Below are positions 35,528 through 40,404 of a stretch of 64,000 nucleotides of DNA, in pieces. The stretch spans positions 32,001 to 96,000 of the forward strand of contig CAVTHS010000014.1 of assembly GCA_963734535.1 (NCBI GenBank). The letters run 5' to 3'. The first letter of the stretch is position 1. The number at the start of each line of letters is the position of its first letter. The notes beneath the pieces are model-generated. The model was not told the origin of the DNA. It saw only the letters and a program-made list of their open reading frames with translations, and did no database searches. This DNA is from an uncultured Chloroflexia bacterium (GTDB lineage: Bacteria > Chloroflexota > Limnocylindria > Limnocylindrales > CSP1-4). A program made the translations under genes and the position numbers.

Positions 35528-36362
35528 ATGAGCTTCGTCCCCGGGATGGGCGTCCTCAAGGGCATGGCGCTCACGCTGCGGCGGTTCTTCGCGCCGAAGG
35601 TGACGATCCGGTACCCCGAGGTCACGCCCGACATCGCCGTCAAGTACCGCGGCAGGCTGCAGCTGCTGTACGACGAGCACGGTACGCTCAAGTGCGAGAC
35701 CTGCTTCCAGTGCGCCCAGGCCTGCCCGATCGAGTGCATCGACATGGGCGGCGTCGACACCAGGGGGCGCTACGCCGTCCACTGGGGCGCCTCCGAGACC
35801 TACGGCGAGCGGCGCGAGGAGGCGGCCCTCCGGCGCGCCGGCCGCGAGGTGCCGGACCCGACGTACGCCCGCTTCGAGGCCGTCGACACCGCCGCCGTCG
35901 ATCGCATCCTGGAGGATCACGACTACGACCCGCACCGGATGCTCTCGATCCTCGAGGCGATCCAGGCCGAGTTCGGCCGCCTCCCCGTCGCGGCGCTCAA
36001 GCAGGTCAGCTTCACCACCGGGTCGTGGTACGCGATGATCTACGGCACCGCGACCTACTACCGCCACTTCCGGTTCGAGAAGACGGTCGAGCAGGTGGCC
36101 GTCTGTCGCTGCACGGCCTGCCTGATGCAGGGCGGTGGGCGGCTGGCGGACGCGCTCGCTCGCCGGGCTCGGGACGGGGCTCGGGCGGATCACGCCGGAC
36201 GGCCGGATCCGGCTGGACTGGCTGCCCACCCACCCCGCCGGCGCGCCGGCGCCGCTCGTGACGCTCGACCGCGAGCCCCAGCCTGAGGTCACGCCTGCCA
36301 ACGCCGCCGCCTGGGCCCAGGCGCTCGTCGGGGAGCATCCCGCCACCCGGACGGTTCACTGA
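35528..36362 (+). CDS. Fusion of NuoI N-terminal half with degenerate NuoE (frameshift near 36160)
   Basis: VTIRYPE..YRG..CETCFQCAQACP (only one NuoI ferredoxin motif), then NuoE-like MLSILEAIQAEFG.LP..YGTATYY..F..VAVCRCTAC; tail ITPDG..LDWLPTHPAGAPAP in ORF 36135..36362. Confidence 0.85.
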
Positions 36363-36366
36363 GCCG

Positions 36367-37732
36367 ATGACGACGATCCTCCCGACACCGGCGGCCTGGC
36401 CGCGACCGCTGCTCGGCGATTCGCCGAGCAGCGACCCGCCCTCGGGCGACGCGCGGCTCGCCGATCCCGCCGACCTGGACGCCGCGGTCCGCGCAGGCGC
36501 GTTCGCCGGGCTGACCCGCGCGCTCCGCGATCTGGGCGCCACGCTGACGACCGCGACGATCGCCGAGTCGGGCCTTCGCGGCCGAGGCGGCGCAGGCTTC
36601 CCGGCGGCCCAGAAGTGGCGCGCCGTCGCCGCGACGCCCGGGGCTCTGCGGTACGCCGTCGCGAACGGCTACGAGGCAGATCCGGCGGGGGCCACGAACC
36701 GCCACCTGATGACGCAGCGCCCGTACGCGATCGTCGAGGGCCTGGCGATCGCCGCGCTCTCGGTCGGCGCTGAGGAGGCCATCCTCGCCGTCCGGGCGGA
36801 GTACGCGGACGCGGTCACGGCCCTGGAGCTCGCGGTCTCCGCGGCCGAGGAGGCCGGGTACATCGGCGAAGACGTCCTGGGATCCGGGCGCGCGCTCCGG
36901 ATGACGGTCCATCCCGTGCAGGGTGCCTACCTGCTGGGCGAGGAGACGGTCCTCCTCAAGGCCCTCGAGGGGCGCCGGGGCCAGCCGGAGCAGCGCCCGC
37001 CCTACCCGTCGGAGCGCGGCCTCTGGGGCCGGCCGACCCTCGTCCACAACGTGGCAACGCTCGCGGCGATCCCCTGGATCGTCGTCCACGGCTCCGATGC
37101 CTACCGCGCCATCGGCGACCCGGACGCCCCGGGGACGGTCCTCGTCCAGGTGACGGGTGCCGTGCCATCACCTGGCATCGTCGAGGTCCCGACCGCGACG
37201 CCGCTCACCGAGATCGTTGGCCTGGCGGGCGGAGTGGCGGGCGGCCGCACGCTCAAGGCCCTCCTCGTCGGCGGGTCCCTCGGGCGGGCTCCTGCCGGCG
37301 GACCTCGTGACGACCCCGTACACGTTCGGGGCGCTCCGCGCGGTCGGCGCCCATGTCGGATCGGGTTCGGTGGTGGTGGCCGACGACCGGACGTGCGTGG
37401 TGGACCTGGCACGTCTCCTGACCCGCTACTGCGCGGACGAGGCATGCGGCAAGACGATCCCGTGCCGGATCGGGCTGCGCCGCCTGTCGGAGATCGGGGA
37501 GCGGATCGCGTCCGGCCTGGCCCGCCCGACCGATCCGGGGCTTCTTGCAGACCTCGGGGCGGACATCGTGGGGAGCGCGCTGTGCGACCACGAGCGGCTC
37601 GCAACAGGGCCGCTGGCGACCGCGATGCGATACTTCGGGCCCGAGATCGACGCCCACCGCTCGGGCGTCTGCCCAGCCGGCGTCTGCGCCCCCGCCGGGG
37701 TCGTGGCCGCCGGGACCGCGCACGGAGGATAG
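36367..37732 (+). CDS. nuoF: NuoF-like flavoprotein subunit, degenerate (frameshift near 37275)
   Basis: SGLRGRGGAGFP..KW, GAYLLGEET, PPYP..GLWG.PT..NV.T, SLBB domain, then GGPSGG and EACGKTIPCRIG..SALC..CPAGVC in ORF 37157..37732. Confidence 0.85.
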
Positions 37733-37743
37733 GCACGACCGCG

Positions 37744-40404
37744 ATGGCCGACCTCATCTCCCGCCCAGCCGACCGCATCCCCGGCCCAGCGGACCTCGTC
37801 TCGACGACCCGACCCGAGCCGGTGGTCGACTCGCTGGCGGAGCGGCTCTTCCGCACGCAGTCGCCGCAGCGCCCGCAGTCCACGCCGGTCATCCGGCTCG
37901 AGGTCGACGGGCGCGCCGTCGAGGGCCGCGAGGGCCAGACGATCCTCGAGGTCTGCCGCGACAACGGGATCGAGGTCCCCACCCTGTGCTACGAGCCAAA
38001 GCTGCCGGGCTTCGGCGCCTGCCGCATGTGCGTGGTGGAGGTGGCGGGCGAGGAGCACCCGCCGATCTCGTGCTCGCGCCTGGCCGAGGCCGGGATGGTG
38101 GTCCAGACCCAGACAGAGGAGGTTCGCCGCCTGCGCCGGACCAACCTGGAGCTGATCTTCTCCGACCACAACGCGTACTGCCTGCCGCCCTGCCAGAACA
38201 AGTGCCCGAGCCACATCGACATCCCGGGGTTCCTCAAGGCGAACGCGGAGGGCGAGTTCCGCGAGTCGGCCCGGATCTTCAAGCGCACGATCCCGTTCCC
38301 CTCGATCCTGGGCCGGGTCTGCCCGGCGCCGTGCGAGGAGCACTGCCGGCGCGACGAGGTCGACGAGGCGATCGCGATCCGCGACAGCCACCGCTACGCG
38401 GGCGACCAGGTGATCCGCGCGATGCGCGAGCAGGACGTGGATCCGCCGCTCCCCTTCGAGCTGCAGCCGAAGTCCGGCAAGCGGGTGGCGGTGATCGGGT
38501 CCGGCCCGGCCGGCGCGTCCGCGGCCTACTACCTGCTGATCGCGGGCCACGACGTGACGATCTACGAGCGGGACGAGGCGCCCGGCGGCATGCTCCGTTA
38601 CGGCATCCCGGAGTACCGGCTCCCGAAGGAGAAGGTCCTCGATCCCGAGTACGAGAGCATCACGCGACTCGGCGGGCGCTTCGTCTGCAACCAGGCCCTT
38701 GGCCGCGACTTCAGCCTGGACGACCTCCAGAACCAGGGCTACGACGCCGTCATGGTGGCGATCGGCTGCTACGACACGAACAAGCTGGGGATCCCCGGCG
38801 AGGACGCCGACGGTGTCATCGACGGCCTGGAGTACCTCAAGATCGCCACGCTCGGCCTGACCTACCCGGGCCACGCCGGCACGCGGGTCGTGGTCATCGG
38901 CGGCGGCTTCACCTCGATGGACTGCTCGCGAACCTCGGTACGCCAGGGGGCGTCGGAGGTGACGCTCGTCTACCGCCGCGACATGAAGGACATGCCCGCC
39001 TCCGGCGAGGTCCACGAGGCCATCGAGGAAGGCGTCACGACGATCTTCCAGGCCGGCCCGACCCGCGTCATCGCGAACGAGGCGGGCAAGGTCACCGGTG
39101 TGGAGTTCATCCGGATGCAGCTGGGCGCCGCGGACGCCTCGGGCCGTCGTCGACCCGAGCCGGCCCCTGGCACCGAGTTCACGATCGAGTGCGACCGCGT
39201 CCTGCTCGCGATCGGGCAGGGCCCGGACCTGACCTGGATGGGTGGTGGCTCGGACGGCGTCGAGGCCACGAAGTACAAGCGCCTGCGGGCCGACGCGGTC
39301 ACCTTCCTGACCCCGCGGCCGGGCGTCTTCGGGACCGGCGACGTCCGCATGGGCGCCCAGACCGTCGTCCAGGCGATCGCCGACGGGCGCCGGGCCTCCT
39401 ACGCGGTGGACGCCTACCTGAAGGGAATGGACCTCGGCGAGATCCGGACCCGCCAGACGCTGGCGGAGCCACAGCCGGAGTTCCTTAGCATCGTCCCGTT
39501 CACGTCCGAGGTGAAAGCACCCCGCAACCGGCTGCGGACCATGCCTGCCGAGGAACGGCGCTCGAGCTACGTCGAGTACGAGATCCCGTACTCGCAGAGC
39601 GAGGCGGTGGCGGAGTCCACGCGCTGCCTGCAGTGCACCTGCGAGGCGATCGGCTTCTGCGACCTGCGCCGCCTGGGCATCGAGTACGGGACCACCCTCA
39701 AGACGCTGGAGCCGCAGAACAACGGCGGGGCCGGCTTCCGGAGCGTGACCGAGAACCGCTTCACCGGCTCCAACCACGACTACATCCGCGACGACAGCCA
39801 CGCCTTCATCCTCCGCGAGCCGTCGCGCTGCATCGACTGCGGCCGCTGCGCCAACGTCTGCGCCGAGGTCGTCGGGGCGGCCTGCTACGACTTCATGCGG
39901 ATCGGCTTCGACACCCTGGTGACCACGCCGCTCGACATGAGCCTCAACGACACGCCGTGCGTGTCGTGCGGGCGTTGCGCGGAGACGTGCCCCACCGGCG
40001 CGCTCATGCCGAAGCCGCGGATCCTCGAGAAGTACGACGTGGACGAGAGTCGCTGCATCCTGTGCGGCATCTGCGTCGACGCCTGCCCGTACGACGCGCT
40101 CCGCTGCGGCCCCGACTTCGAGCTGGCGCACGTGAGCCGCGAGGAGCCGATGATCGACCTCATCGCGATCGCGGCGGTCGATCGCGAGACGGAGATGACC
40201 TACGTTCGCCGCGAGCGCGACTGGCTGGAGCGGGCAGTCGCATCCGGCCGGGATGTCGGCGCCCGCCAGCTCCCGGTGCTCCCGGCCTCGCTCGCGGGCG
40301 GCGCGAACGGCAACGGCAGCGGTCGCGCGAGCGTCCCCGGCAACGGCCACAATGGGCACGGCCCGGCCGGCGGCGGCACCGCCGGGCACGCGCACAACCG
40401 GTAG
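37744..40404 (+). CDS. NuoG-N / GltD(NfnB)-like FAD-NAD(P)H oxidoreductase / 2x[4Fe-4S] / NuoI C-terminal half fusion
   Basis: [2Fe-2S] [124 protein letters not shown]. Own ATG at 37744. Confidence 0.88.

Follow-up and report, generated by a model that had tools for sequence, protein, structure and literature searches.

Introduction

Two features of respiratory complex I, the iron–sulphur wire N3-N1b-N4-N5-N6a-N6b-N2 and the single-chain NuoI/TYKY subunit, have to our knowledge been treated as invariant. The canonical input module is encoded between nuoD and nuoH, while the operons of 11-subunit complexes run in the order A-B-C-D-H-I-J-K-L-M-N. In NuoI, as in the 2[4Fe-4S] ferredoxin fold generally, each cluster takes three cysteines of one motif and the fourth, that of the Cys-Pro pair, of the other. 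Here we describe a nuo operon from an uncultured Chloroflexia soil bacterium of the class Limnocylindria, order Limnocylindrales (assembly GCA_963734535.1, contig CAVTHS010000014.1) in which nuoI is split between these two motifs and each half is fused to a protein of an NfnABC/StnABC-like input module. The window is the whole 64,000-nt stretch that was analysed; features are given in window coordinates and rest on open reading frame (ORF) calls and tblastn synteny with relatives.

Complex I relatives with other input modules have been predicted before. ‘Nuo-Bfu’, a prediction of Schut et al. (2022; PMC9304861), is a proton-pumping complex I in which Bfu-type subunits, with genes in mid-cluster, take the place of the NADH module; it is described as a 14-subunit A-N system of Deferribacteres, Proteobacteria, Planctomycetes and Nitrospirae with a proposed confurcation of NADH and ferredoxin, and an ‘Mbh-Bfu’ is likewise predicted by the same authors. 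In the main text of that article the word NuoI does not occur, and the passages on this predicted type describe neither a GltD domain nor a split subunit. In the mbx-like operons of Thermotoga and proteobacteria a gltD-related flavoprotein is said to substitute for NuoI (Degli Esposti, 2015; PMC4758237). A search of open-access papers and bioRxiv preprints, supplements lying outside it, found no description of a split NuoI or of the operon presented here.

Results

A NuoI domain divided between two proteins

The ORF at 35528-36286 (+ strand, as assembled) encodes the NuoI N-terminus, and the same reading frame continues with a NuoE-type domain (PF01257, residues 125-213, E 2.7e-13). Read through a 1-bp insertion near 36160, this I'-E fusion gene extends over 35528-36362 and comprises the NuoI N-half, a conserved linker and the NuoE-like domain. 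Residues 12-76 of its product match positions 1-64 of the 121 positions of the NuoI model TIGR01971 (E 3.6e-12, 45.9 bits), several further NuoI equivalog models match the same part, and the matches of the N-half in the PDB are NuoI, NDUFS8 or NdhI chains in 35 cases out of 35. The N-terminal segment that precedes the first ferredoxin motif in NuoI is retained, and the motif itself (CETCFQCAQACP, 35693-35728) presents C56, C59, C62, C66 and P67, all invariant in 17/17 aligned proteins.

The remainder of NuoI forms the C-terminus of the large subunit, an NfnA/StnC-like protein of 886 amino acids (aa) encoded at 37744-40404 (+). This C-half (40027-40185) follows the last NuoG-type cluster motif at a distance of 20 residues and consists of the second ferredoxin motif (40054-40089), followed by GPDFELA and a conserved tail. 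When the last 157 aa are scanned alone they match TIGR01971 positions 71-116 (E 7.6e-16, 57.8 bits); no family outscores the NuoI models, FdxA_fam at 44.6 bits being the best of the others. The best single-stretch PDB matches are the second halves of NuoI/NDUFS8 chains, for example residues 93-143 of the 163 of 8qby_I (53.7 bits); in a search with the C-terminal 132 aa, polyferredoxins outrank NuoI only via eight summed repeats of no more than 20 bits each. C771, C774, C777, C781 and P782 of the second motif are invariant in 13/13 proteins and also in 17/17 when four non-Limnocylindria lineages are included.

Coverage of the NuoI model is complementary, 1-64 on I'-E and 71-116 on the large subunit, and both halves match consecutive parts of the single canonical nuoI of another genome of the class (G110). 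An earlier note, made from the letters of this DNA, had proposed that NuoI is split between its two ferredoxin motifs and that the C-terminal motif belongs with NuoI rather than with unrelated ferredoxins, and both proposals are borne out by the profile scans, which likewise place the NuoI and NuoE parts in I'-E and find Fer2_4, Fer4_20, Pyr_redox_2 and the NuoI part in the 886-aa protein. Instead of a single NuoI polypeptide with two CxxCxxCxxxCP motifs, the locus thus has one such motif on each of two proteins, which share all eight NuoI cluster cysteines between them; these would be expected to bind two clusters jointly. Given the three-plus-one pattern of ligation the two half-domains would bind clusters only together, and it is very likely that they assemble in trans into one NuoI domain.

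Structure prediction gave little on this point. The co-fold of I' 1-105 and large-subunit residues 745-850 with two 4Fe-4S clusters gave low values (score 0.24, mark 0.32) and counts neither way. AlphaFold2 reached a mean predicted local distance difference test (pLDDT) value of only 33.4 for the last 247 aa of the large subunit (17-row alignment), too low for a fold search. For I'-E of a closely related locus (L011) the model was confident only at a helix (residues 7-21) and in the NuoE-like domain (~115-269); the half-ferredoxin and linker (24-113) had pLDDT below 50, which carries no information on pairing.

Integrity of the fusion junctions

The source genome is a metagenome-assembled genome (MAG) of 14 contigs, 89.94% complete and with 7.1% contamination, and two frameshifts lie in the stretch, one cutting off the NuoE-like tail and the other splitting nuoF. 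They are caused by extra single bases at 36160 and 37276 (+) relative to L011, whose DNA is 94.6% identical. In the Logan contigs of the public DNA run X1, the run that matches the window best (0.80 of words) and may be the source sample, one base fewer is present at 36159 (depth 11.7 of 11.7) and one fewer at 37272 (13.6 of 13.6), and contigs of the public DNA runs X2 and X4 likewise lack a base at 36159-36162 and 37275-37276. As the insertions are absent from this relative and from three public runs, they are assembly errors. One X2 contig, from a relative, has three 1-nt insertions at 37657-37662, and no other indel was listed within 35528-40404; both junctions are free of indels in the public-run contigs and both errors lie far from them. 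The view that assembly indels do not account for the fusions therefore holds, the more so as the fusions are conserved in relatives. Six RNA runs contain 0.05-0.09 of words; one of them, X16, has contigs 90-95% alike over parts of the large-subunit gene, including 40041-40253, which come from relatives and are no proof that this locus is transcribed.

Similar indels may affect other genes of this MAG. Near 36630, in the N-terminus of the nuoF-like gene, an in-frame 18-nt (6-codon) repeat is present twice in L011 and once in the window.

Conservation of the fusions and absence of an intact NuoI

Close homologues of I'-E carry the labels ‘Candidatus Limnocylindrales’ or Chloroflexota and ‘NAD(P)H-dependent oxidoreductase subunit E’, and no name among them mentions NuoI; in the ESM Atlas, Chloroflexota clusters named NuoE alone came up. 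The fusion is near full length in 37/40 relatives, 22/24 within the genus and 15/16 in a second family with genomes of 1.0-1.4 Mb. Its product has 277 aa in 10/11 genus loci (in the eleventh the tail is shifted, and one genome contributes two of these loci) and 273 aa in both second-family loci. The order A-B-C-D-H-I'E-F-G'I-J-K-L-M-N, in which G'I denotes the large subunit, is found in 4/4 wide loci, with nuoF in one frame, and in 8/10 loci of a further set, these eight belonging to families f1 and f4 and including 3/3 from f4. Both fusions recur in synteny in related genomes, as the reading of the earlier note required. Genomes of family f2 (G025-G040), of the same order, measure 1.0-1.4 Mb with ~62% G+C and 84-93% completeness, and retain the full split-NuoI operon.

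Across the class (201 genomes; this tally and that outside the class include some unpublished genomes, on which no single claim depends) I'-E was found in 176/201 genomes at E <= 1e-10. Intact NuoI above the model cut-off occurs in 3/201 (G110, G100 and G061), with partial matches in 200/201. In G110 it belongs to an additional, canonical nuo operon whose nuoI follows nuoH and precedes nuoJ; nuoD of that operon (L041, 487-2003) is in five pieces in different frames, either broken or bearing long-read indels. In the genome of the window itself none of 33 NuoI-model matches attains the cut-off, and the best lies in a group-4 [NiFe] hydrogenase cluster that has its own NuoB- and NuoD-like genes; outside that cluster tblastn finds one nuoB, one nuoD and one nuoH. 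That no intact nuoI serves the operon, another point on which the note turned, is upheld by these genome and class counts. The operon is the organism's only complex I, with eleven core genes and NuoI as two half-domains.

The hydrogenase cluster (contig C2, ~242800-248100) contains its own NuoB-, NuoD-, NuoC- and NuoI-like genes, adjoined by PyrK/ferredoxin-NADP-reductase-like and GltD-like genes. On contig C6 (~258360-262680) stands a second NuoE-like/NuoF-like set, followed by GltD-like, Fer2_4 and NuoG-type ferredoxin parts; their order is permuted relative to the window large subunit and the set may be a soluble Nfn-like paralogue. A search of the genome for NDH-2 (PF22366) gave no match, with a model that detects just 3/14 control genomes.

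Family f3 presents two clusters, B-D-I'E-F-G'I with unrelated flanks and A-C-H-J-K-L-M-N with nuoH directly before nuoJ. Genomes with intact NuoI number 0/5 in this family, and just the two halves are present in 5/5. In the f3 genome G055 (L028, L040) the clusters are on different contigs, with inositol monophosphatase, PhoD and methyltransferase genes as neighbours.

Outside the class, the 150 matches listed for the I'-E profile include ones that span both the NuoI and NuoE parts from at least 33 more Chloroflexota genomes. Three of the four loci fetched present nuoB'-I'E-F-G'I and one A-B-C-D-H-I'E-F-G'I. A scan of species genomes yielded 258 relatives, of which the best 80 are all Ktedonobacteria-type or bear unresolved Chloroflexota/‘Chloroflexia’ MAG titles; cultured carriers among these 80 include strains of Thermogemmatispora, Thermosporothrix, Ktedonobacter (Ktedonobacter racemifer), Ktedonosporobacter, Dictyobacter and Ktedonospora. 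The 4-gene cluster nuoB'-I'E-F-G'I, without membrane subunits, is found in 5/5 named Ktedonobacteria loci. In Thermogemmatispora carboxidivorans (L052, 3897-11146) it stands alone between a divergent isocitrate dehydrogenase gene and an HTH regulator gene, while Dictyobacter alpinus (L074, 8131-12738) has two large-subunit paralogues in tandem.

The input module and its cofactor sites

The large subunit comprises, according to Pfam, Fer2_4, Fer4_20 and a Pyr_redox_2 domain of GltD type, together with NuoG/HoxU-type 4Fe-4S motifs. Its best solved match is Csac NfnA (9bov_A, E 1.4e-162), residues 49-781 aligning to 3-699 of 1178, followed by 9n5u_A and StnC (8oh5_C, E 2e-140); NuoG chains of complex I score only 54-80 bits. 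The alignment with 9bov_A stops at the start of the Fdh-like domain of NfnA and its CxxCxxxC motif, where the window protein has the NuoI C-half, which occupies the place of the NfnA dead-end cluster A5. The GltD-type domain has the FAD motif GSGPAG and the NADPH motifs GGGFTSMD and VYRRD (38497-38982, +), whose glycines and YRR pair (R411/R412) are invariant in 13/13 proteins, as are all cluster cysteines of its two 4Fe-4S sites. H216 (38383-38397), equally invariant in 13/13, aligns with the A7-ligating lysine of NfnA/StnC-type proteins, which in NfnA is K170 (PMC11829005). An A-type subunit with a [2Fe-2S] site, NuoG-type clusters and an inserted GltD-type FAD/NADPH domain is thus present.

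The NuoF/BfuB-core-like flavoprotein gene (36367-37732, +, read through the 1-bp insertion near 37276) encodes Complex1_51K and NADH_4Fe-4S domains and is closest to the cores of HydB, NfnB and StnB (335-356 bits). The protein, of 433-455 aa, aligns only to ~120-540 of the ~600-aa B subunits and ends at CPAGVC, lacking both their N-terminal domain and the C-terminal 2x[4Fe-4S] domain (B3, B4) on the ferredoxin side. It keeps the GLRGRGGAGFP loop, a lysine four residues on, GEET, the PP(Y/F)P aromatic and the Gly-rich loop 3, features named for NADH/FMN binding in the NfnB description in PMC11829005. The motif of the FMN-adjacent cluster (window ~37430-37470) reads C-G-K-T-I-P-C, with the middle cysteine missing, which leaves three at the cluster site; families f1, f2 and f4 have C-G-K-[T/A/S]-x-P-C, while f3 has the canonical CGICVPC. 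Loss of a middle cysteine is the pattern of [3Fe-4S] or non-Cys-ligated clusters, and this site may be of the [3Fe-4S] type.

The NuoE-like domain of I'-E is predicted with pLDDT 72-95 (residues ~115-269, L011), and in structure it comes closest to Csac NfnC (9bp5_C, E 1.4e-11), then to FdsG, HydC, StnA and NuoE/NDUFV2. The second cysteine pair of the NuoE [2Fe-2S] site is missing in 16/16 relatives and the first in 4/16, three of which are shortened to 217-238 aa, so the domain has no Cys4 [2Fe-2S] site and reads as a cluster-less scaffold. The minimal bifurcation site of Bfu enzymes is described as the flavobicluster B1-FMN-C1 (PMC11829005); here the second C1 pair is missing throughout and the first in 4/16, and B1 is C-x2-[T/A/S]-x2-C in f1, f2 and f4. 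The earlier note had the NuoI halves joined to a NuoE-like protein and to an Stn/NfnABC-type NuoG-N/GltD protein, in agreement with the 9bov_A and 8oh5_C matches. Its picture of an Stn/Nso-like module of NuoE-like, NuoF-like and NuoG+NfnB-like parts stands as to kind; the module is more reduced than this implied, with an E domain lacking the complete cysteine set and an F site of three cysteines.

Organization of the operon and its surroundings

A single nuo operon occupies ~31.3 to 46.3 kb of the window on the + strand in the order A-B-C-D-H-[I'-E]-F-[G/GltD-'I]-J-K-L-M-N, with the core subunits A, B, C, D, H, J, K, L, M and N all in one locus; the gene order, anatomy and coordinates first given for it were correct. 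Upstream of I'-E are nuoA (31306-31662, start approximate), nuoB (31836-32384, start approximate), nuoC (32395-32940), nuoD (32955-34169) and nuoH (34180-35517), the sole NuoH-type gene of the genome by tblastn. NuoB carries the CC...C...CP cysteines of cluster N2 and is 75-88% identical across relatives. Downstream of the large subunit follow nuoJ (40431-40964, start approximate), nuoK (40961-41272), nuoL (41295-43298), nuoM (43305-44855) and nuoN (44873-46348). Elsewhere in the window, a 922-aa ORF (26458-29226) has a PurH-type (AICAR transformylase/IMP cyclohydrolase) start, followed by a low-complexity Arg/Pro-rich stretch, and resembles a further frameshift.

Evolutionary relationships

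Capture of the module into the nuoI of an 11-subunit complex, the history put forward in the earlier note, agrees with how the genes are ordered in the window, but other paths are conceivable. The two-cluster layout of f3 and the stand-alone B'-I'E-F-G'I beside a canonical complex I in Ktedonobacteria allow for a pre-formed unit that later merged with the nuo operon or left it. In family f4 coverage of the NuoI model by the N-half reaches positions 74-77 and the C-half starts at 69-71, and an (R/K)Y-x-(V/I) strand is found beside the break in both halves. Two nuoI copies, reciprocally decayed, would fit this pattern. Compared with three genomes that have a cluster NuoB' as well as a canonical NuoB, the window NuoB shares 55-59% identity with the former and 49-51% with the latter. 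In a NuoB tree of 27 rows, rooted on the hydrogenase paralogue, the NuoB' of the 4-gene clusters form a clade (support 96/91); how split-type and canonical NuoB are related is not settled by this tree, in which long branches meet, and a single split-type clade is neither shown nor rejected (p-AU 0.238 in the approximately unbiased test).

Discussion

The best explanation of these findings, and one that we consider probable, is that the operon encodes the sole complex I of this organism, with NuoI rebuilt from two halves and a two-flavin NAD(P)H head derived from an NfnABC/StnABC-type module. The N-half, with its membrane-side helix and first motif, would pair with the C-half, which brings the second motif and the NuoI tail, to form a 2[4Fe-4S] domain holding N6a and N6b, and the paired halves would bolt the module to the Q-module from both sides. 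Electrons would enter at the GltD-type FAD from NADPH and probably also at the NuoF-like FMN from NADH. The NADPH wire would run from FAD through A7, A6, A3, A2 and A4 to N6a, N6b, N2 (NuoB) and menaquinone, driving proton pumping, and NADH would feed it through FMN, B1 and A1, joining at A2. In Csac NfnABC the path is given as FAD-A7-A6-A3-A2-A1-[B1-FMN-C1]-B3-B4, with A2-A4-A5 as a non-functional side branch (PMC11829005). That branch would be the likely output line here, because the NuoI C-half stands at the A5 position and B3, B4 and C1 are gone, with A4 as the presumed neighbour of N6a. Bifurcation to ferredoxin appears unlikely, given the loss of the C1 [2Fe-2S] cluster, of the B3/B4 domain and of one B1 ligand. 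Most likely the module acts simply as an NAD(P)H dehydrogenase head; going by the conserved motifs, NADPH is a plausible donor.

More tentatively, and at somewhat worse than even chances, we suggest that Limnocylindria and, in a modular form, other Chloroflexota possess a two-flavin, proton-pumping NADPH (and NADH):menaquinone oxidoreductase with a two-polypeptide NuoI domain, in which the dead-end branch of NfnA has become the output wire, and that the nuoB'-I'E-F-G'I cluster of Ktedonobacteria provides an alternative head that can be exchanged on one and the same membrane arm.

Several observations weigh against the explanation that we prefer. Neither half attains the TIGR01971 cut-off (45.9 and 57.8 against 113.05 bits), and the simple sum of the two scores, 103.7 bits, also falls below this curated value for the 121-position model. 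So far the halves have been seen together in no confident model, and we infer their pairing. With the genome 89.94% complete, a canonical nuoI could strictly speaking have been missed in this one organism. Intact NuoI is found elsewhere in 5/5 non-Limnocylindria Chloroflexota genomes with the split pair (including those of the B-I'E-F-G'I loci L048-L050); together with the membrane-less 4-gene clusters outside the class, this co-existence means that the split pair alone is no proof of a NuoI role in complex I. The choice between NADPH and NADH as donor is read from motifs alone, and the FMN branch may be impaired or vestigial in view of the three-Cys F site of f1, f2 and f4 and the E domain without a cluster site.

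These points have to be set beside what other explanations would require. We give practically no weight to the idea that errors of assembly or gene calling in an unreliable MAG created the fusions and that the true genes are separate nuoI, nuoE and nuoG-like ones: two real 1-bp indel errors do lie in the stretch, and the MAG has the contig number and contamination given above, but the errors are off the junctions, I'-E recurs at its full length in relatives and is present in cultured Ktedonobacteria, and 13/13 and 17/17 aligned loci conserve the large subunit together with its NuoI C-half. The split and fused architecture is, with near certainty, real and conserved. The C-terminal motif might still derive from something other than NuoI, as a generic ferredoxin or a remnant of the Fdh-type A5 site of NfnA, leaving a single-cluster NuoI or none. 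The polyferredoxin FwdF tops the PDB search by summed score, the motif aligns at the position of the Fdh-type motif of NfnA, and its score is under the NuoI cut-off. The FwdF score is, however, a sum of eight weak repeats, whereas NuoI chains align in one stretch of 45-54 bits that reaches past the motif into the tail; the margin of the NuoI models over FdxA_fam, a CxxCxxCxxxCP motif instead of the Fdh-type CxxCxxxC, and coverage exactly complementary to that of the N-half, whose cluster would miss its fourth cysteine without the C-half if the general pattern of ligation applies, make such an origin very improbable.

A more serious alternative, if still an unlikely one, is that I'E, F and G'I form a separate, dissociable and non-bifurcating NADPH/NADH oxidoreductase with its own NuoB-like partner, which is merely co-encoded with complex I or docks to it conditionally. 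It draws on the occurrence of nuoB'-I'E-F-G'I without nuoD, nuoH or antiporter-like genes in Ktedonobacteria and three other Chloroflexota lineages (3/4 fetched outside-class loci and 5/5 named loci, with intact NuoI elsewhere in 5/5), and on f3, which keeps B-D-I'E-F-G'I away from the membrane genes. In the lineage of the window, on the other hand, nuoB, nuoD and nuoH each occur once outside the hydrogenase cluster and there is no other NuoI, so its complex I would be incomplete without the split proteins; even in f3 nuoH directly precedes nuoJ with no nuoI between them, and I' keeps the NuoI N-terminal segment. The complex might instead be an ordinary FMN-only NADH:quinone oxidoreductase in which the GltD-type FAD domain is regulatory, vestigial or an NADP+-reducing outlet, a possibility that we would place a little higher while still thinking it improbable. 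Conservation of the NADH/FMN loops in the F-like subunit would suit it, as would a PntB-type transhydrogenase in the genome, through which NADPH and NADH could be balanced otherwise. Yet it is the FMN-adjacent cluster that has lost a cysteine ligand in three of four families while the FAD branch is intact, and the invariance of the FAD/NADPH motifs and GltD-domain cluster cysteines across lineages 46-89% identical argues for a working site.

With NuoI assembled from two halves, a whole class of bacteria abundant in soil and freshwater would make a core two-cluster domain of the iron–sulphur wire out of two proteins. The input module is of a different origin from NuoEFG and is plugged in elsewhere, and would represent an independent solution to the acquisition of electron input. 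If NADPH is a donor, these menaquinone users would gain driving force for pumping, and anabolic reducing power would be coupled directly to respiration; the menaquinone potential (E°' -74 mV) and the argument from driving force are set out by Schut et al. (2022; PMC9304861). As cultured Ktedonobacteria carry the split pair, its biochemistry is directly testable.

Among solved systems, NfnABC and StnABC (9bov/9bp5, 9n5u, 8oh5), soluble electron-bifurcating transhydrogenases of the Bfu family, are the best relatives of all three module proteins, sharing a GltD domain inserted in a NuoG-type N-terminus and the FAD/NADPH and FMN/NADH motifs. They differ from the window module in several respects: its large subunit carries a NuoI half instead of the Fdh-like C-terminal domain, its B-type subunit lacks the N-terminal and the ferredoxin-binding C-terminal domains, the C1 ligands are missing, B1 has three cysteines in most window-type lineages, the lysine ligand of A7 is a histidine, and its genes lie inside a nuo operon with their products fused to parts of complex I. 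The Mbx-like complexes also place a GltD-type NAD(P)H flavoprotein in the NuoI slot of a complex I relative; the passage on them in PMC4758237 describes neither a split NuoI nor E/F-like partners, both of which are found here. In Nuo-Bfu, as described in PMC9304861, BfuABC stands for NuoEFG in an A-N operon with a separate nuoI, whereas the operon described here has its module between nuoH and nuoJ and a divided nuoI. The backbone is identical in order to that of the 11-subunit complex I that lacks an N-module once the module is removed, the differences being an interrupted nuoI and the presence of an input module. With the canonical 14-subunit complex I (Thermus Nqo1-15, E. coli, M. smegmatis 8e9g) the operon has in common the membrane-arm and Q-module genes in their usual order and the eight NuoI cysteines; it is set apart by a NuoI in two polypeptides, an NfnABC-like module with a second flavin site that is encoded between nuoH and nuoJ, and the absence of the molybdopterin-like domain of NuoG and of the N1a site. 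The split-NuoI operon adds a new form to complex I but does not amount to a system of a new type.

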